From a virus: DNA of 64,000 bases. The stretch is taken from UHGV virus genome UHGV-1351569; one strand, 5' to 3'. The position numbers and the translations under genes were made by a program. Shown piece after piece: positions 3,210 to 62,347 of the stretch (position 1 is its first letter; each line of letters opens with the position of its first letter). The notes under the pieces are model-generated. The model had not been told where the DNA came from. It did no database searches and was given only the letters and a program-made list of their open reading frames with translations.

Positions 3210-3264
3210 CCGCTTTATACCAAGGATGGTATAATGGTTCTAAGCCCTTTTAATTGAGATTGTT

Positions 3265-3669
3265 ATGAAACAGTTGATAATTAAAAGATTGAATTTATTG
3301 ATATGTTGTTTATGTATAGTAATTGCATATGGTTATTACGCAATTAATGATTATATGCATTATAAAGATTATGATGTTACTGTAGTTAATACCTTTACAG
3401 GAACTCAAGGAAAGGGGTCTAGTTTATCGTTTATTGCTGTATATGAACTCAAAGACGGTTATAGATTTAGCGAATATATTTCACCAGAGATGTATTCATC
3501 AATAGAAAAAGGCGATAATATTACTGTAAGTTTACGTCCTTTCGACGTAAAACAGACATTGTTTGATAATATTGTTTGGTTCTTTGGAATGGTATTAGTT
3601 CAATCTGTATGCGGTGCTTATATAGTCTTTTCCATCATATTCTGCATATTTAGTAAAATTGAAAATTGA
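3265..3669 (+). CDS. Hypothetical membrane protein, 134 aa (N- and C-terminal hydrophobic segments)
   Basis: ORF track; hydrophobic stretches LLICCLCIVIAYGYYAI and IVWFFGMVLVQSVCGAYIVFSIIFCIF. Confidence 0.6.
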   Translation: MKQLIIKRLNLLICCLCIVIAYGYYAINDYMHYKDYDVTVVNTFTGTQGKGSSLSFIAVYELKDGYRFSEYISPEMYSSIEKGDNITVSLRPFDVKQTLFDNIVWFFGMVLVQSVCGAYIVFSIIFCIFSKIEN

Positions 3670-53203: not shown

Positions 53204-54142
53204 ATGTACAATATTAAATGCCTGACCAAAAACGAACAAGCTGAAATTGTCAAACTGTATTCAAGTGGTAATTATACCCAGCAGGAATTGGCTGATTGGC
53301 AAGGTGTATCGGTGGACACAATCCGTCGTGTTTTGAAAAATGCTGAAGAAGCTGAGCGTTCCAAAGTTACCATTAGCGGTGACATTACAGTTGAAGTTAA
53401 GAGTGATGTAGCCATTGCTCCAGTTGCTAAATCTGACATTATTTGGAATGCATCTAAAAAATTCATTTCAATTACTGTTGATGGCGTAACTTATAACGCA
53501 ACTCCTAATACTCATTCAAACTTCCAGGAAATTCTTAATCTGCTTGTTGCAGATAAATTGGAAGAAGCAGCGCAAAAAATTAATGTTCGCCGCGCTGTTG
53601 AAAAATATATTTCTGGTGATGTTCGAATTGAAGGTGGAAGCTTGTTCTATCAAAACATTGAATTACGGTCTGGTTTAGTTGATCGTATTCTCGATTCGAT
53701 GGAAAAAGGCGAAAACTTTGAATTTTATTTTCCGTTCTTGGAAAATCTGTTGGAAAACCCGAGCCAAAAAGCGGTATCTCGACTCTTTGATTTCTTGGTA
53801 GCAAACGATATTGAAATTACAGAAGACGGTTACTTCTATGCTTGGAAAGTAGTTCGCAGTAATTACTTTGACTGCCATTCAAATACTTTTGATAACAGTC
53901 CTGGTAAAGTAGTTAAAATGCCACGTACTCGTGTGAATGACGATGATACACAAACTTGTTCTCGTGGTCTGCATGTGTGTTCTAAATCTTATATTCGTCA
54001 CTTTGGCAGTTCAACCAGTCGAGTTGTAAAAGTTAAAGTACATCCTCGCGATGTAGTATCAATTCCGATTGATTACAACGATGCTAAAATGCGTACTTGC
54101 CAATACGAAGTAGTTGAAGACGTTACTGAACAATTTAAATAA
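53204..54142 (+). CDS. rIIB: rIIB protein, 312 aa
   Basis: Exact T4 rIIB length; adjacent to rIIA. Confidence 0.85.
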   Translation: MYNIKCLTKNEQAEIVKLYSSGNYTQQELADWQGVSVDTIRRVLKNAEEAERSKVTISGDITVEVKSDVAIAPVAKSDIIWNASKKFISITVDGVTYNATPNTHSNFQEILNLLVADKLEEAAQKINVRRAVEKYISGDVRIEGGSLFYQNIELRSGLVDRILDSMEKGENFEFYFPFLENLLENPSQKAVSRLFDFLVANDIEITEDGYFYAWKVVRSNYFDCHSNTFDNSPGKVVKMPRTRVNDDDTQTCSRGLHVCSKSYIRHFGSSTSRVVKVKVHPRDVVSIPIDYNDAKMRTCQYEVVEDVTEQFK

Positions 54143-54170: not shown

Positions 54171-54365
54171 ATGTTAGGTTATCAAGCACGAGTAAAAGAA
54201 GAATACGATCAATTAATGCTCAAAATTAATGCACTGAGCAAATTTTTAGAAAGCACAAAGTTTCTAACGATTAATGAAGTTGAGCAAGAATTGCTGCTTT
54301 CACAATTCATCTCAATGAAATCTTACGCAGATTGTTTAGAAAAAAGAATTGCACAATTCAAATAA
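54171..54365 (+). CDS. Hypothetical protein, 64 aa
   Basis: ORF track; AAGGA RBS. Confidence 0.5.
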   Translation: MLGYQARVKEEYDQLMLKINALSKFLESTKFLTINEVEQELLLSQFISMKSYADCLEKRIAQFK

Positions 54366-54452: not shown

Positions 54453-55010
54453 ATGCAGAAAACGAATCCGGGTTTACAGAGACTATTTCAGATTCCGACA
54501 TTTACCCTATCGAACAGTGACTTGACTAGTGAAATGAAGGTCAAAATTGCTGATACAGCAAGATACTCTTTAAAACAAAACCCGAACCAGGATAAAGCAG
54601 AAGTTATTGAAAGATGTCGTATCGCGGTGTACGCAGAGTTTTTTGTAGCAGATTGGCTAAGCGGGTATGTTAACAAAGGCCAAGAGGATGTTAATGACCC
54701 GTATACATACGCATGGGATGTATTGGCGCATCCAAGATATTGCGGGCTTCGTGTAGAAGTTAAGACACACCAAACTGACTCACGTTGGATTTCGGTAACA
54801 ACCGGATGCAGCGGAGAGTATCCATACGGTTCTGGAATAAATCTAGGGCCCATTCTGAATCACCAAGTCGCTGACTGTATAATTATATTCAACACTAAAG
54901 AAATTCATCCAGGTGTCATCCAGTACACTCCGAAGTTCATCGGTGATAGAGAAGACCTTCGTAAAGTTGTAAGAAAAAGCAACTACAACGGATGGTATCT
55001 TTCCATTTAA
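54453..55010 (+). CDS. denB: Endonuclease IV DenB-position protein, 185 aa
   Basis: Length and position (between rIIB and ndd) as T4 denB; name by synteny. Confidence 0.65.
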   Translation: MQKTNPGLQRLFQIPTFTLSNSDLTSEMKVKIADTARYSLKQNPNQDKAEVIERCRIAVYAEFFVADWLSGYVNKGQEDVNDPYTYAWDVLAHPRYCGLRVEVKTHQTDSRWISVTTGCSGEYPYGSGINLGPILNHQVADCIIIFNTKEIHPGVIQYTPKFIGDREDLRKVVRKSNYNGWYLSI

Positions 55011-55027
55011 AAAAATTTCACAAAACA

Positions 55028-55057
55028 GTTTACATACCACAAGGACTGTGGTACTAT
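55028..55057 (+). promoter_or_regulatory. T4-type early promoter, cassette copy F
   Basis: GTTTACA ... TGGTACTAT with the same leader as copy A. Confidence 0.6.
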
Positions 55058-55091
55058 ATAACTATCAACTGATACGGATTTGGAGAATAAA

Positions 55092-55298
55092 ATGTTTACT
55101 ACAGCTGAATTAAAACGAGCAAAAGCTAAGAAAGGGCAAGGAAAATATAAAGCTGAATTAGTTAAAGAACTTCAGTTTGCTGAGGCTGAATTGAATTCAA
55201 TGATTATTCAAAATGCTCCAGAAACTGAAATTGCTCTTAAACGTATTGCGAATAAGTGTCTTCGTGATGCAATCGTCGATCTTTTAGCGGATTATTGA
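55092..55298 (+). CDS. Hypothetical protein (about 68 aa)
   Basis: ORF track 55080..55298; ATG 55092 behind the shared leader. Confidence 0.5.
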   Translation: MFTTAELKRAKAKKGQGKYKAELVKELQFAEAELNSMIIQNAPETEIALKRIANKCLRDAIVDLLADY

Positions 55299-55303
55299 GT
55301 AAA

Positions 55304-55567
55304 ATGAAATTTAAATTTTATTACGCTAAACATAAAATAACTGATGAGTTTGTGTCAGTTGAATATTCTAGCGATGATGAAGGTATGATTTATACTCGCT
55401 TAGGGTTATCGCACTGGGAGTCTGATACGCCTTATTTTTCAACTCCTGAAGAAATTACACGTTTAGTTAATGGTCATATGAATGACCACTGGAATGTAAT
55501 TCTTTCAGATAGTCTTAAAGCGGCTATTAATAGTAATGAAATGAAAATCGCTGAGATTGAACTATGA
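55304..55567 (+). CDS. Hypothetical protein (about 87 aa)
   Basis: ORF track 55295..55567; ATG 55304. Confidence 0.5.
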   Translation: MKFKFYYAKHKITDEFVSVEYSSDDEGMIYTRLGLSHWESDTPYFSTPEEITRLVNGHMNDHWNVILSDSLKAAINSNEMKIAEIEL

Positions 55568-55753
55568 GTTCATTATGGTGGTGTTTTGTTTGGTTAATTA
55601 GTATTCCATTGATTTGTTTAGTATTTACTTTTGTGATGAGGTTATTATGAAAATTTTGAATTCTGTACTTATTGCTTGTGCATGGTGGGTTGCACAGGTT
55701 TCAGCGGTAGTAGTTGGTATTCACATTTATTACGAATATTTTTAAAAAAGTTG

Positions 55754-55782
55754 TTTACAAGACTGTTCTTCCGTGGTACTAT
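55754..55782 (+). promoter_or_regulatory. T4-type early promoter, cassette copy E
   Basis: GTTTACA ... TGGTACTAT with the same leader as copies C and D. Confidence 0.6.
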
Positions 55783-55810
55783 TACCCTATCAACTACGGA
55801 GGAACAGAAA

Positions 55811-55924
55811 ATGAAAAAGATTGTTAAAGCTATATGGAATGTAGTTATAATACTAATAGTTTTGAGTATATTCCCAATCGTTTTAATGATTGATGTATTA
55901 AACGTTTACTTTGGATTTATGTGA
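55811..55924 (+). CDS. Small membrane peptide, 37 aa
   Basis: ATG behind the shared GGAGGAACAGAAA leader; hydrophobic (IWNVVIILIVLSIFPIVLMI); the track ORF 55676..55924 starts inside the promoter. Confidence 0.4.
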   Translation: MKKIVKAIWNVVIILIVLSIFPIVLMIDVLNVYFGFM

Positions 55925-55931
55925 GGAAAAT

Positions 55932-56129
55932 ATGAAGCGTAAACGCAGTGCTTTTACATTTATTGAATGGTTTTTCGATAATATTTTTCCGGCTTTATTC
56001 ATTTTCATGCTGATTTTTGCCTTAGGTTCAGTTGTAGTTGGAATCTATTTGATGGCGGTAGTCGGAATGGATATTCATCAAAATGGTTTAAAATCCGTAG
56101 TTGAAACAATTTGGAATGGTGTAAAATAA
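55932..56129 (+). CDS. Small membrane protein (about 65 aa)
   Basis: ORF track 55911..56129; ATG 55932 behind TGAGGAAAAT; hydrophobic core. Confidence 0.45.
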   Translation: MKRKRSAFTFIEWFFDNIFPALFIFMLIFALGSVVVGIYLMAVVGMDIHQNGLKSVVETIWNGVK

Positions 56130-56244
56130 TGAATTTACTAAACATTTGGTTTTATATTCTCATGTTTTACATTGGCGCAAATTTTCCATATTGGATGGGA
56201 TGGTCAACAACTGCATTTGGATTTTATACTCCTTGAGGTGAATT

Positions 56245-56460
56245 ATGAAAAGTTTTAAAGATGTAAAAGTTGGTGAAATTTTCTGTTTAGATAATGGTGA
56301 TCAGTTAATTCGTATTTCACCTCTTAAGAGCACTAGCGAGAAAATGACAGTTAACGCTACTTTAGCAAATAACAGCAATGAACGTTTCTGTATTGAAAAT
56401 GATACTGAAACTTATACTGTAGAAGAGTTCTGGGAATTGAGCGTCGACTGCGACGATTAA
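56245..56460 (+). CDS. Hypothetical protein, 71 aa
   Basis: ORF track; GAGG RBS. Confidence 0.45.
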   Translation: MKSFKDVKVGEIFCLDNGDQLIRISPLKSTSEKMTVNATLANNSNERFCIENDTETYTVEEFWELSVDCDD

Positions 56461-56520
56461 TTTATCGGCCGTATGTATTCATGCGGCCTTGGAGTAGAAA
56501 ATAATTTAGAGGAAATTAAA

Positions 56521-56979
56521 ATGAAATATATGACTGTTACTGATCTGAATAATGCAGGCGCAACTGTTATTGGTACAATCAAGGGCGGTGAATGGGTTTT
56601 TGGAACTCCGCATAAAGACATTTTGTCTAACCCTGGATTTTACTTTTTAGTGAGTAAATTAGATGGTCGTCCATTTGGTAGTCGATGTGTATCTGCACGA
56701 TTTTATGTAGGTAATCAACGTTCTAAGCAAGGATTCAGCGCAGTTCTAAGTCATATTCGTCAGCGTCGGTCTCAGCTTGCGCGTACTATTGCAAATAACA
56801 ATGTTCCATACACAGTATTTTATTTGCCTGCTTCTAAGATGAAACCTCTGACGACGGGATTTGGAAAAGGTCAGTTAGCTTTGGCGTTTACTCGTAATCA
56901 TCATTCTGAATATCAAACACTTGAAGAAATGAACCGTATGTTGGCTGATAACTTTAAATTTGTTTTGCAGGCATATTAA
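56521..56979 (+). CDS. ndd: Nucleoid disruption protein Ndd, 152 aa
   Basis: [25 protein letters not shown]... matches recalled T4 Ndd; the track ORF starts further upstream. Confidence 0.8.
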
Positions 56980-57059
56980 TGAGTAATTTCCATAACGAAC
57001 ACGTGATGCAGTTCTATCGTAACAATCTTAAAACTAAAGGCATCTTCGGACGCCAGTGA
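56979..57059 (+). CDS. stp: Stp peptide (26 aa)
   Basis: [26 protein letters not shown] matches recalled T4 Stp; ATG overlaps the ndd TAA. Confidence 0.75.
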
Positions 57060-57066
57060 GGAAAAT

Positions 57067-57222
57067 ATGAATATTGCAAAACTATTAGGAGTTATTTCAT
57101 TTATTTGTTGGATAGTAGCATGTGTTTTAACTATCTGTATAGATGCTAGCAGTGTGTTTTCACAAGCTTTAGCCCAGGGTATGTGTGCATATTTAACATT
57201 TGTGCTGTTATCTAATGATTAA
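57067..57222 (+). CDS. ac: Small membrane protein (51 aa), likely Ac (acridine sensitivity)
   Basis: TGAGGAAAATATG start; hydrophobic; size and position as T4 ac. Confidence 0.55.
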   Translation: MNIAKLLGVISFICWIVACVLTICIDASSVFSQALAQGMCAYLTFVLLSND

Positions 57223-57355
57223 GAAAATCTTGGGCTATTCATTAGCCCTTGCTACTTTATTGGTAGCACTATATTATGGAGTAATGTTCGGATTAATTCA
57301 AGTCGTGCTTTTCATTTCTGATGTTATTATGGCACTACATTCACTAGTATGGTAA
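57215..57355 (+). CDS. Small hydrophobic peptide, 46 aa
   Basis: ATG to TAA frame overlapping the ac stop and gene 52 start region. Confidence 0.3.
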   Translation: MIKKILGYSLALATLLVALYYGVMFGLIQVVLFISDVIMALHSLVW

Positions 57356-57359
57356 ATTT

Positions 57360-58688
57360 ATGCAACTGAATAATCGTGATTTAAAAAGTATCATTGATAA
57401 TGAAGCATTGGCTTATGCTATGTACACGGTTGAAAATCGTGCTATTCCAAATATGATTGATGGATTTAAGCCAGTCCAACGATTTGTTATTGCTCGAGCT
57501 CTTGATTTGGCGCGAGGAAATAAAGATAAGTTTCACAAACTCGCTTCTATTGCAGGTGGTGTAGCTGACCTTGGATATCATCATGGTGAAAACTCTGCAC
57601 AAGATGCGGGGGCTTTGATGGCTAACACTTGGAATAATAACTTTCCTTTGTTAGATGGTCAAGGAAACTTTGGTTCTCGTACCGTTCAAAAAGCAGCAGC
57701 AAGTCGTTATATTTTTGCTCGTGTAAGTAAAAATTTCTATAACGTATATAAAGATACTGAATATGCTCCGGTACATCAAGATAAAGAACACATTCCGCCT
57801 GCTTTCTATTTGCCTATTATTCCTACCGTTCTTCTTAATGGTGTTTCCGGTATTGCAACTGGTTATGCAACTTACATTCTTCCTCATAGCGTTTCTTCTG
57901 TTAAGAAAGCTGTACTACAAGCTCTTCAAGGAAAGAAAGTAACTAAACCGAAGGTAGAATTCCCAGAATTTCGCGGTGAAGTCGTTGAAATTGACGGTCA
58001 ATATGAAATTCGTGGAACGTACAAGTTTACTTCACGAACCCAAATGCATATCACTGAGATTCCGTATAAGTATGATCGTGAAACTTACGTGAGTAAAATC
58101 TTAGACCCGCTTGAAGATAAAGGCTTCATTACGTGGGATGATGCTTGTGGTGAGCATGGCTTTGGCTTTAAAGTTAAATTCCGCAAAGAATATTCTTTGA
58201 GTGATAATGAAGAAGAACGCCATGCAAAAATCATGAAAGACTTCGGGTTGATTGAGCGTCGTTCCCAAAATATTACAGTCATCAACGAGAAAGGAAAACT
58301 GCAAGTTTACGATAACGTAGTTGATTTAATCAAAGACTTCGTTGAAGTTCGTAAAACTTATGTTCAAAAACGAATTGATAACAAAATCAAAGAAACTGAA
58401 TCAGCATTTCGTTTAGCCTTTGCCAAGGCACATTTCATTAAGAAAGTAATTTCAGGTGAAATCGTTGTACAGGGTAAAACTCGCAAAGAACTGACCGAAG
58501 AACTTTCTAAAATTGATATGTATTCTTCTTATGTTGATAAACTAGTCGGAATGAATATTTTTCATATGACTTCCGATGAAGCAAAGAAACTTGCTGAAGA
58601 AGCTAAAGCTAAGAAAGAAGAAAACGAATATTGGAAAACTACTGATGTAGTTACAGAATACACCAAAGATTTAGAGGAAATCAAATGA
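57360..58688 (+). CDS. 52: DNA topoisomerase II medium subunit gp52 (GyrA-like), 442 aa
   Basis: GyrA-like N-terminus (NMIDGFKPVQRFV...), active-site Tyr region; exact T4 gp52 length. Confidence 0.9.
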   Translation: MQLNNRDLKSIIDNEALAYAMYTVENRAIPNMIDGFKPVQRFVIARALDLARGNKDKFHKLASIAGGVADLGYHHGENSAQDAGALMANTWNNNFPLLDGQGNFGSRTVQKAAASRYIFARVSKNFYNVYKDTEYAPVHQDKEHIPPAFYLPIIPTVLLNGVSGIATGYATYILPHSVSSVKKAVLQALQGKKVTKPKVEFPEFRGEVVEIDGQYEIRGTYKFTSRTQMHITEIPYKYDRETYVSKILDPLEDKGFITWDDACGEHGFGFKVKFRKEYSLSDNEEERHAKIMKDFGLIERRSQNITVINEKGKLQVYDNVVDLIKDFVEVRKTYVQKRIDNKIKETESAFRLAFAKAHFIKKVISGEIVVQGKTRKELTEELSKIDMYSSYVDKLVGMNIFHMTSDEAKKLAEEAKAKKEENEYWKTTDVVTEYTKDLEEIK

Positions 58689-58834
58689 GTCCATTCATAG
58701 GTATTACAAGCGCTGCATTAGTATCTGGTAGCATTTTACTGGCGGGTTTAGGCGTTGTTCCAGCTGTAGCAGGAGGTCTTCTTGCGTTCGGAATTCAACG
58801 TGTTATCATGACAGTTATCACAGTCATGCAGTAA
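58685..58834 (+). CDS. Small membrane peptide, 49 aa
   Basis: ATGA overlap with the gene 52 stop; Gly/Ala-rich hydrophobic. Confidence 0.4.
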   Translation: MSPFIGITSAALVSGSILLAGLGVVPAVAGGLLAFGIQRVIMTVITVMQ

Positions 58835-61690: not shown

Positions 61691-62347
61691 TTATTTAGCC
61701 CTTCCTAATATTCTGGCCGCCTGAGCACATATTGATTCAAGGCGGTCATTACTTATATGATCATTTCTATACCAGTACATGGTTATCGTTCCAGCATAGA
61801 TATTATCCAAATTAAAATATGGACAACTGTACATGTAGTTTATTTCGGGAGTAGGCTTTTTAGTTGGTAAAAAAGCAAATTTTGAGTTGGAATAATAATG
61901 ACGTCCATTTAAATGAACTGTATATTCATCCATAGTTTTATCAACAGGATATCCTCCAAGTGATTTTTCACTTATTGTTGAAGGTAATTTTCCTTCGTAT
62001 GCTATAATATCAACAAAATAGTTTAAGTTTTTAGGGCGGAAAGAATATACCGCACTAAAGTCTGCCTCAGATGATATATGAACTATCTGGAGTTGTTCCA
62101 GGGCGACAGATTCAAAGCGTGCATTTCTTTCCTTTTCAATAATTTCACTGTATGTTTCATACTTTGATTGCTTATAGTACTCAAAGAAACTATCTCCCCT
62201 ATACCAAACAATCGCCATCATAAATAAAAGAATTACGACAGCTACCCGGGAAGCAAGAACTTTCCCGGTAGCGTTATCTTTGAACAAGCGATCTAGAACA
62301 CCAAACAGAATATCAGAGGGCGAAAATGATATTCTAGGTGCTGCCAT
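61691..62347 (-). CDS. t: Holin T, 218 aa
   Basis: MAAPRISFSPSDILFGVLDRLFKDNATGKVLASR... matches recalled T4 holin; strong AAGGAGG RBS; single TM segment. Confidence 0.92.
   Translation of the reverse strand: MAAPRISFSPSDILFGVLDRLFKDNATGKVLASRVAVVILLFMMAIVWYRGDSFFEYYKQSKYETYSEIIEKERNARFESVALEQLQIVHISSEADFSAVYSFRPKNLNYFVDIIAYEGKLPSTISEKSLGGYPVDKTMDEYTVHLNGRHYYSNSKFAFLPTKKPTPEINYMYSCPYFNLDNIYAGTITMYWYRNDHISNDRLESICAQAARILGRAK

Follow-up and report, generated by a model that had tools for sequence, protein, structure and literature searches.

Codon-level conservation of five short hydrophobic genes, ndd.6 to ndd.2, between denB and ndd of a T4-like phage

The stretch of DNA analysed here, 64,000 nucleotides of UHGV virus genome UHGV-1351569 (the window), carries five very small, strongly hydrophobic open reading frames (ORFs) between denB and ndd. 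The source of the window is a Tequatrovirus, one of the T4-like phages of Escherichia, Shigella and Yersinia. For the 3 kb surrounding the frames there are 562 matching phage records, all of them Tequatrovirus, and the closest are 96-97% identical. Codon-level comparison shows that each of the five frames, even the one of 28 codons, is a protein-coding gene kept by purifying selection, and sequence and gene order identify them as orthologues of T4 ndd.6, ndd.5, ndd.4, ndd.3/ndd.2a (one gene of 65 amino acids (aa)) and ndd.2. These genes are already known; the T4 annotation has listed them for decades, and PHROGs and Pfam also include them. In our judgement, the five products are very probably translated early accessory micro-proteins of the inner membrane, each a single helix, that modulate the host envelope and are not lysis proteins.

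Packing and conservation of the five frames

The initial annotation had reported small frames of 29-65 codons at 55564, 55647, 55811, 55932 and 56129, and each of these positions is the A of an opening ATG. The products are 28, 32, 37, 65 and 35 aa long (29-66 codons with the stop), and the cluster lies where it had been placed, between denB and ndd. The products were also rightly called strongly hydrophobic. Their grand average of hydropathy (GRAVY) is 0.64-1.94, and every one of the five contains an uncharged span of 21-35 residues. The frames had further been presented as additional to the listed ORFs. They are real, but all five are already annotated in T4-family records, and they do not stand as unannotated genes.

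The five frames are translationally coupled genes, arranged head-to-tail with overlapping stops and starts or with Shine-Dalgarno sequences. The stop of the preceding 87-aa gene overlaps the ndd.6 start in ATGA. The ndd.6 stop overlaps the ndd.5 start, again in ATGA, with the Shine-Dalgarno sequence GAGG upstream of ndd.5. The ndd.4 start is preceded by the Shine-Dalgarno sequence GGAGGA, the sequence that the initial annotation had noted ahead of another frame (TGAGGAAAATATG) is present before 55932, and the stop of the 65-aa gene overlaps the ndd.2 start in TAATG. Together, the five hydrophobic ATG-initiated ORFs cover 92% of 721 nucleotides, a tiling that was reached in none of 2000 dinucleotide-preserving shuffles of the interval (at most four ORFs and 70% cover). 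Hydrophobicity alone is weak evidence, because the genome is T-rich and holds many chance hydrophobic ORFs; 26 hydrophobic ORFs of 25-70 aa that start with ATG lie on the + strand of the window, and a good number of these are out of frame within larger genes. The case for real genes rests on tiling and conservation, not on hydrophobicity.

For the comparison within the genus, the interval was aligned between the window and 20 other Tequatrovirus genomes (21 in all, 88-97% nucleotide identity). The ratio of non-synonymous to synonymous polymorphism (pN/pS) is 0.15 in ndd.6, 0.08 in ndd.5, 0.08 in the 65-aa gene and 0.11 in ndd.2, and the adjoining soluble gene ndd.1 gives 0.10 for comparison. 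The variable sites at the first, second and third codon positions number 5/1/5, 1/1/9, 7/3/22 and 6/3/15, respectively; pooled over these four genes they are 19/8/51, with a chi-square of about 38 against equal thirds. In ndd.4 the variable sites are 5/1/5 and pN/pS is 0.60. The alternative frames of the same nucleotides have pN/pS of 0.5-6.7 and many stops, and the other two frames of ndd.6 give 0.60 and 3.4. Starts and stops are intact in nearly all of the 21 genomes. There are six exceptions: a 1-nucleotide deletion in codon 2 of the 65-aa gene in the T4 reference, a stop at codon 45 of the same gene in T2, a 2-nucleotide insertion that shifts the frame at the 3' end of ndd.6 in G8, an in-frame 3-nucleotide insertion in ndd.6 in ESh18, a 1-nucleotide deletion at the ndd.2 stop in ZCEC14, and a change of the ndd.2 ATG to ATA in YwIITB1.

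In more distant relatives, ndd.6, ndd.4, the 65-aa gene and ndd.2 keep their protein sequences despite near-saturated synonymous sites, and these relatives settle the matter for ndd.4, on which the comparison within the genus is uninformative. In Gaprivervirus RZ (L021, NC_070780), the homologue of ndd.6 is MSSKTWCLIWMLCIPVICVCFSLLLLNLA, and that of ndd.4 is MKKLLKAIWNMFVLFVVLSIFPIVFMIDHVRVFFNF, identical to the window at 22 of 36 residues with a ratio of non-synonymous to synonymous substitution (dN/dS) of 0.13; the RZ ndd.4 homologue has its own early promoter. A more divergent T4-like contig (Logan contig L022) has the order ndd.6, ndd.4, 87-aa-gene homologue, ndd.2 and 65-aa gene from denB to ndd, with the ndd.2 homologue at 1763-1885, ahead of that of the 65-aa gene. 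Its homologues differ from the window with pS of 0.69-0.90, near saturation, and pN of 0.20-0.42, and ndd.4 has pN 0.20 and pS 0.90. Some of these homologues are missing from current gene calls. Those of ndd.6 and ndd.4 in RZ, at 2388-2477 and 2537-2647, are unannotated in RefSeq record NC_070780, where an annotated coding sequence (2622-2804) overlaps the 3' end of the latter, and the ndd.6 homologue of the Logan contig (1263-1349) is likewise not called as a gene.

A tblastn search of the five peptides against 50,697 phage records found ndd.6 in 594 records (about 100 below 60% identity), ndd.4 in 597 (about 100 of them from other genera, at 60-80% identity), ndd.2 in 519, the 65-aa gene in 495 and ndd.5 in 408, the last in Tequatrovirus only, with no match under 90% identity. 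An IMG/VR scan with Ndd as the anchor gave five loci only, and the diversity was taken from the GenBank phage collection. Among 5.8 billion proteins, homologues of the 65-aa protein fell into eight clusters, all phage-like and without a functional lead.

The reading that these are chance ORFs in T-rich promoter, leader and spacer DNA, without functional peptides, can point to the abundance of hydrophobic ORFs on the + strand of the window and to the failure of mass spectrometry to detect the proteins in T4. Set against it are the conserved starts and stops, the amino-acid conservation across genera, and the tiling that the shuffles did not reproduce. We give it next to no credence; the codon-level analysis shows frame-specific selection, and chance ORFs are excluded on that account. 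The initial annotation had asked whether the frames, as opposed to the nucleotides, are conserved in relatives, and the polymorphism ratios, the starts and stops and the distant homologues all answer in favour of the frames.

Identity and the T4 reference annotation

The gene order around the frames is that of T4, with denB, ndd.6 to ndd.2, ndd.1, ndd, stp, ac, 52.1 and 52 on the same strand; throughout, gene order and strand in the window correspond to the T4 map as read on the complementary strand. T4 and T4T share with the window the position between denB and ndd.1/ndd, the order, the strand and the early promoter. In addition, ndd.6, ndd.5, ndd.4 and ndd.2 of T4 are equal in length to those of the window when counted from the shared ATG. 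Amino-acid identity to T4 is 26/28 in ndd.6 (92.9%), 32/32 in ndd.5, 36/37 in ndd.4 and 32/35 in ndd.2; the T4 identity of 86-100% covers these four genes and comes from a column-by-column comparison with the 20 genomes, T4 included. For the 65-aa gene, the annotations were compared rather than the amino-acid sequences, and the same 198-nucleotide coding sequence is annotated in T4T and in T4 OZ209023. The T4T annotation (HM137666) has products of 28, 32, 37, 65 and 36 aa, structured as in the window.

All five peptides have full-length PHROG matches, with E values from 5e-16 to 3e-30: ndd.6 with phrog_8851 (4.8e-16), ndd.5 with phrog_5011 (3.6e-26), ndd.4 with phrog_3098 (2.9e-21), the 65-aa protein with phrog_2401 and ndd.2 with phrog_4135 (3.1e-23). 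The 65-aa protein also matches Pfam PF23906 (DUF7248), scoring 71.9 bits where the cut-off is 27, and PF26889 (Phage_T4_Y16N) was found on the ndd.4 homologue of the Logan contig. For none of the families PF23906, PF26889 and PHROGs 8851, 5011, 3098, 2401 and 4135 is a function annotated. In PHROGs, the names 'outer membrane protein' and 'periplasmic protein' go back to early predictions of localisation and do not record an observation. An outer-membrane barrel cannot be built from helical peptides of 28-35 residues. Several GenBank records, ime09 F413_gp006 and ZCEC14 UVD33569/UVD33570 among them, give these peptides mistaken product names: 'outer membrane protein' for helical peptides of 28-35 aa, 'naphthalene 1,2-dioxygenase' for ndd.4, and 'DnaB-like helicase' and 'tail fibers protein' for the 65-aa gene and ndd.2. 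NCBIfam and PDB sequence searches matched nothing, and the PADLOC defence-system models had no match to the five peptides at E values up to 0.1. The initial annotation was right that the short membrane peptides of this region are uncharacterised; the ndd.1-ndd.6 products are called unknown in Kutter et al. 2018 (PMC6071114). In our literature search, the phage papers that name these genes assign them no function, and the preprint of Ojima et al. on anti-defence genes does not mention the region.

The comparison also bears on how the 65-aa gene is described in T4. The T4T record names it ndd.3, those of ime09 and RB51 name it ndd.2a, and the T4 reference splits it in two. There, the 1-nucleotide deletion in codon 2 leaves a 26-aa out-of-frame 'ndd.3' and a 40-aa 'ndd.2a' that begins at an internal Met. 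This deletion is carried by 3 of 411 matching records (X75802, AF158101 and NC_000866), which belong to one sequence lineage. Re-sequenced T4 (T4T HM137666, OZ209023 and OZ209057) does have the additional base, and the 65-aa gene is annotated intact in T4T and OZ209023. These comparisons indicate that the conserved unit is a single 65-aa gene and that the ndd.3/ndd.2a split is peculiar to one sequence. The deletion is probably a sequencing error of the reference or a stock-specific mutation.

The length of ndd.4 differs in a similar way. In the T4 annotation, ndd.4 has 42 aa and begins at an earlier ATG, one that shares bases with the GGAGGA Shine-Dalgarno sequence (3250-3265 of the T4 reference locus, L002; 55796-55813 in the window). 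That start is unusable in the window, because the codon there is ACG. The downstream ATG is kept in 21 of 21 genomes, T4T takes it as the start, and it gives the conserved ndd.4 product of 37 aa. Upstream of ndd.6, the T4 reference NC_000866 is without the 68-aa and 87-aa genes that the window has between denB and ndd.6. In their place, T4 retains an 8-codon ORF, MKIAEIEL (L002 3520-3494, - strand), in which the ATG of the leader cassette is joined to the last eight codons of the 87-aa gene. This remnant is coupled to ndd.6 through ATGA.

Early promoters, peptide anatomy and proposed role

Two early promoters of the sigma-70 type, with the exact consensus GTTTACA-N15-GGTACTAT, lie ahead of the frames. 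The one at 55028 heads the unit of the 68-aa gene, the 87-aa gene, ndd.6 and ndd.5. The other was described by the initial annotation as a promoter cassette directly ahead of a frame, and the exact consensus at 55753-55782 does precede 55811; it drives ndd.4, the 65-aa gene, ndd.2 and ndd.1, and probably ndd too. When up to three mismatches to the pattern are allowed, it occurs 18 times in the window, always on the + strand, against 2.1 expected. The membership of the five genes in the early class is suggested in the window by these two upstream sites, the RNA class itself being measured in T4 only, where RNAs of ndd.2-ndd.6 are classed as early (Class_Tx; Wolfram-Schauerte et al. 2022, PMC9697503 Table S2). 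The promoters and leaders form cassettes of about 75 nucleotides in two repeated classes (1184 and 55028; 2624, 28760 and 55753). Such near-identical cassettes of promoter, leader, Shine-Dalgarno sequence and ATG recur ahead of unrelated early genes, which fits promoter-mediated modular shuffling of T4-like phages.

The only charged residue of ndd.6 is R26, and in ndd.5 the span is flanked by K2 (N side) and E30 (C side). ndd.4 begins with MKKIVK, an N-flank with a charge of +3, followed by a 21-residue uncharged span and D28, and its mid-helix proline is invariant ('VLSIFPIV'). ndd.2 has no charged residue at all and is 34% aromatic. By the positive-inside rule, ndd.5, ndd.4 and the 65-aa protein would lie with the N terminus in and the C terminus out. 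The 65-aa protein has a basic N-terminus (KRKR), an amphipathic helix at 5-17, a predicted transmembrane helix at about 19-45 and a conserved amphipathic tail at 46-65. AlphaFold2, run on a 6-sequence alignment, gives it helices at 5-17 and 19-64 with a kink at Phe19-Pro20 (predicted local distance difference test score (pLDDT) 80.5). Helices 5-17 and 46-64 are amphipathic (hydrophobic moments (muH) of 0.52 and 0.42), and the middle is uniformly hydrophobic. Fold matches of this model would carry no meaning because it is a single bent helix. A 55%-identical homologue retains FIEWFFDNIFP and NGLKSV.ET.WNG.K, and its transmembrane core has diverged; this pattern suggests that the juxtamembrane parts of the 65-aa protein are functional surfaces.

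Two further ideas about these peptides were rejected. The 65-aa protein could be read as a secreted precursor, with V-V-G then M as the signal-peptidase site, but this is out because the hydrophobic span of about 28 residues has the length of a signal anchor and the site is not kept in the 55%-identical homologue. The motif 'IWN', which ndd.4 has in its N-terminus and the 65-aa protein in its C-terminus, is too short to judge paralogy by, and with both proteins N-in its copies would face opposite sides of the membrane.

The early promoters and the anatomy both bear on the lysis role that the initial annotation had proposed, and that proposal is not supported. As holin, antiholin or pinholin-like peptides, the five would set the timing of lysis, and they are indeed small and hydrophobic with one transmembrane-length span. 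However, the promoters are early and not late, the RNAs are early in T4, and the canonical holin t is encoded elsewhere, on the other (late) strand of the window. No endolysin adjoins the five frames in the ORF map of the window, no Pfam holin family matches at E values up to 0.1, and the PHROG matches carry no lysis category. A charged C-terminal domain is missing from four of the five (the C-flanks are RLL in ndd.6, EYF in ndd.5 and DVLNVYFGFM in ndd.4, and ndd.2 has none), and only the 65-aa protein has a polar tail, with a net charge of 0. In addition, the region can be deleted with phage still produced, as in the sa-delta-9 mutant described below. A lysis role is hardly likely at all. An in-silico 'holin' paper of 2025 was set aside; it concerns unrelated Phage_holin_2_1 proteins.

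Our preferred explanation is that of micro-proteins acting on the host envelope. Within the first minutes of infection, each product would enter the inner membrane of the host as one helix. The micro-proteins may then bind and modulate envelope proteins or lipids of the host, by analogy with small membrane regulators of bacteria and with T4 Ac. For the 65-aa protein, the conserved juxtamembrane helix and tail, the latter periplasmic under the assumed N-in topology, suggest a membrane-anchored binding module. MgrB, AcrZ, MgtS, KdpF, T4 Ac and 52.1 resemble the five peptides in size, in their single transmembrane helix and in the proposed binding of larger membrane proteins. MgrB, AcrZ, MgtS and KdpF are small regulators of the bacterial inner membrane; neither they nor Ac and 52.1 are related in sequence to the five peptides, and the likeness would be one of working mode, not of membership.

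In T4, loss or knock-down of the genes is of little cost. Phage with the sa-delta-9 deletion, in which 52.1, ac, stp, ndd, ndd.1-6 and denB are missing, reach about 50% of the wild-type yield, and they no longer show the stimulation of phospholipid synthesis that T4 induces, that of phosphatidylglycerol (PG) in particular (Kutter et al. 2018, PMC6071114). In the T4 table of Adler et al. 2025 (PMC11879866), ndd.1-ndd.6 are scored 'Not Fit' by CRISPRi-ART knock-down, which we read as no measurable fitness effect, and ndd.3 is listed as a PHROG singleton. ndd.4/.5 have been given as an example of cassette exchange in a hyperplastic region (Comeau et al. 2014, PMC4122927). A natural chimera exists in Shigella phage Sf25, whose gp120 (P0007, 62 aa) consists of the first two-thirds of ndd.4 fused to the second half of the 65-aa DUF7248 protein and carries both Pfam families (PF26889 and PF23906). 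The patchy distribution of the genes across genera, their shuffled order in RZ and the Logan contig, the natural knock-outs in T2, G8 and YwIITB1 and the chimera fit conditionally useful host-interaction genes.

Several points weigh against this explanation. The within-genus pN/pS of ndd.4 is uninformative, with 11 variable sites in all, and the natural knock-outs show that selection on single genes is weak or conditional. Ndd.2-Ndd.6 were not detected in T4 proteomics (Class_P = NA), and Ndd and Ndd.1 were detected as early proteins (PMC9697503, Table S2). Proteomics easily misses products as small and hydrophobic as these. Our literature search found no T4 ribosome-profiling study. Membrane insertion, topology and the binding of partners are all steps that we infer.

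Another possibility is that the peptides are membrane-depolarising toxins of the type I kind (TisB, Ldr, Ibs and Hok) that serve early host shut-off. The size of 28-37 aa and the composition resemble those toxins. No Pfam toxin family matches at E values up to 0.1 (ndd.6, ndd.5, ndd.4 and ndd.2 have zero Pfam matches), and knock-down or deletion costs little phage yield. The T4 early period, moreover, requires an energised membrane. We regard such toxins as highly improbable.

The loss of PG stimulation raises another alternative, that the peptides are determinants of the T4-induced phospholipid change and stimulate PG synthesis directly or indirectly. Besides sa-delta-9, the partly overlapping rII-delta-DD2 deletion abolishes the stimulation, and several genes of the region encode hydrophobic, probably membrane-located products (PMC6071114). 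However, about a dozen genes are removed by the deletion and the effect is unmapped to single genes. Mutants that lack only dCTPase, endonuclease IV (denB) and Alc also lose PG stimulation (PMC6071114), which points away from the peptides. We consider this alternative improbable.

Finally, the genes may encode superinfection-exclusion factors, a role that the initial annotation had also suggested, or counter-defence factors. Made early, one or more of the peptides would keep the DNA of secondary phages out, like Imm, or would counteract a membrane-bound abortive-infection system of the host, as the neighbouring rII genes do with RexAB. The early promoters, the membrane location and a neighbourhood rich in host-interaction genes (rIIB, denB, ndd, stp and ac) would suit such factors, and dispensability on laboratory strains, patchiness and shuffled order are typical of conditional accessory genes. 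T4 Imm and Sp are, like the five, early, small, envelope-located and non-essential, but they are without homology to the five peptides, which also match no PADLOC or Pfam family of known role. Imm has 83 aa and two transmembrane segments, and Sp is a secreted protein of 97 aa. No phenotype is reported for the five genes, and we know of no exclusion phenotype that maps between denB and ndd. We hold exclusion or counter-defence to be unlikely on the whole, with a small but real chance, and it is a special case of envelope modulation, not a true alternative to it. A more specific proposal, tentative and of low probability, is that at least one micro-protein is a determinant of the unmapped denB-52 phenotype (PG stimulation) or neutralises a membrane-associated defence or exclusion system through direct binding to an inner-membrane protein of the host; the widely conserved ndd.4 and the 65-aa protein, with its conserved tail, would be the best candidates.

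Gene map and meaning of the region

The features of the region are collected in Table 1.

Table 1. Coordinates of the five frames, their promoters and the surrounding genes (window positions unless stated otherwise)
Feature	Coordinates	Strand	Remarks
ndd.6 (frame A)	55564-55650	+	ATG, 28 aa, MSSLWWCFVWLISIPLICLVFTFVMRLL; one transmembrane-length span
ndd.5 (frame B)	55647-55745	+	32 aa, MKILNSVLIACAWWVAQVSAVVVGIHIYYEYF; one transmembrane-length span
ndd.4 (frame C)	55811-55924	+	37 aa, MKKIVKAIWNVVIILIVLSIFPIVLMIDVLNVYFGFM
65-aa gene (frame D; ndd.3/ndd.2a)	55932-56129	+	single gene; DUF7248
ndd.2 (frame E)	56129-56236	+	35 aa, MNLLNIWFYILMFYIGANFPYWMGWSTTAFGFYTP
ndd.3/ndd.2a split in T4 NC_000866	3049-3129 (locus L002) = window 55932-56129		1-nucleotide deletion
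Early promoter and leader	55028-55091	+	exact consensus GTTTACA-N15-GGTACTAT at 55028-55057; leader gives Shine-Dalgarno sequence and ATG
Second early promoter and leader	55753-55810	+	exact consensus GTTTACA-N15-GGTACTAT at 55753-55782; Shine-Dalgarno GGAGGA
rIIB	53204-54142	+	ORF map
64-aa gene	54171-54365	+	between rIIB and denB; Pfam PF21825, 69.7 bits
denB	54453-55010	+	ORF map
68-aa gene	55092-55298	+	between denB and ndd.6
87-aa gene	55304-55567	+	between denB and ndd.6
ndd.1	56245-56460	+	ORF map
ndd	56521-56979	+	ORF map
stp	56979-57059	+	ORF map
ac	57067-57222	+	51 aa
52.1	57215-57355	+	46 aa; Pfam DUF7396
gene 52	from 57360	+	ORF map
t (holin)	61691-62347	-	late strand

Between rIIB and denB, the family of the 64-aa gene is named differently in different sources: PF21825 is crAss001_48-related in the local Pfam copy and 'Sequestin' in a precomputed match on the homologue in contig L022. 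Downstream of the five frames, the end of ndd.1 and the spacer that separates it from ndd carry GC-rich hairpins (56442-56490; CGTCGACTGCGACG and GGCCGTATGTATTCATGCGGCC), and several genomes have indels of 1-2 nucleotides here. These hairpins may serve ahead of ndd as a partial terminator or as a site of RNA processing. Small single-helix membrane genes are also found further downstream, namely ac, 52.1 and a 49-aa ORF after gene 52 (58685-58834); ac and 52.1 lie 0.8-1.1 kb downstream of the five frames in the same early region. The denB-to-motA stretch has an unusual density of early membrane micro-proteins.

As a discovery, the five frames carry little weight, the genes being long annotated. 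Their value lies in the codon-level evidence, in the recognition of a single 65-aa unit and in a list of candidates. Together with ac and 52.1, the five genes would make up a compact block that encodes seven or more early membrane proteins of a single helix each. Deletion of the region that holds this block abolishes a documented change in host lipid synthesis, which leaves a short and tractable list of candidate genes.

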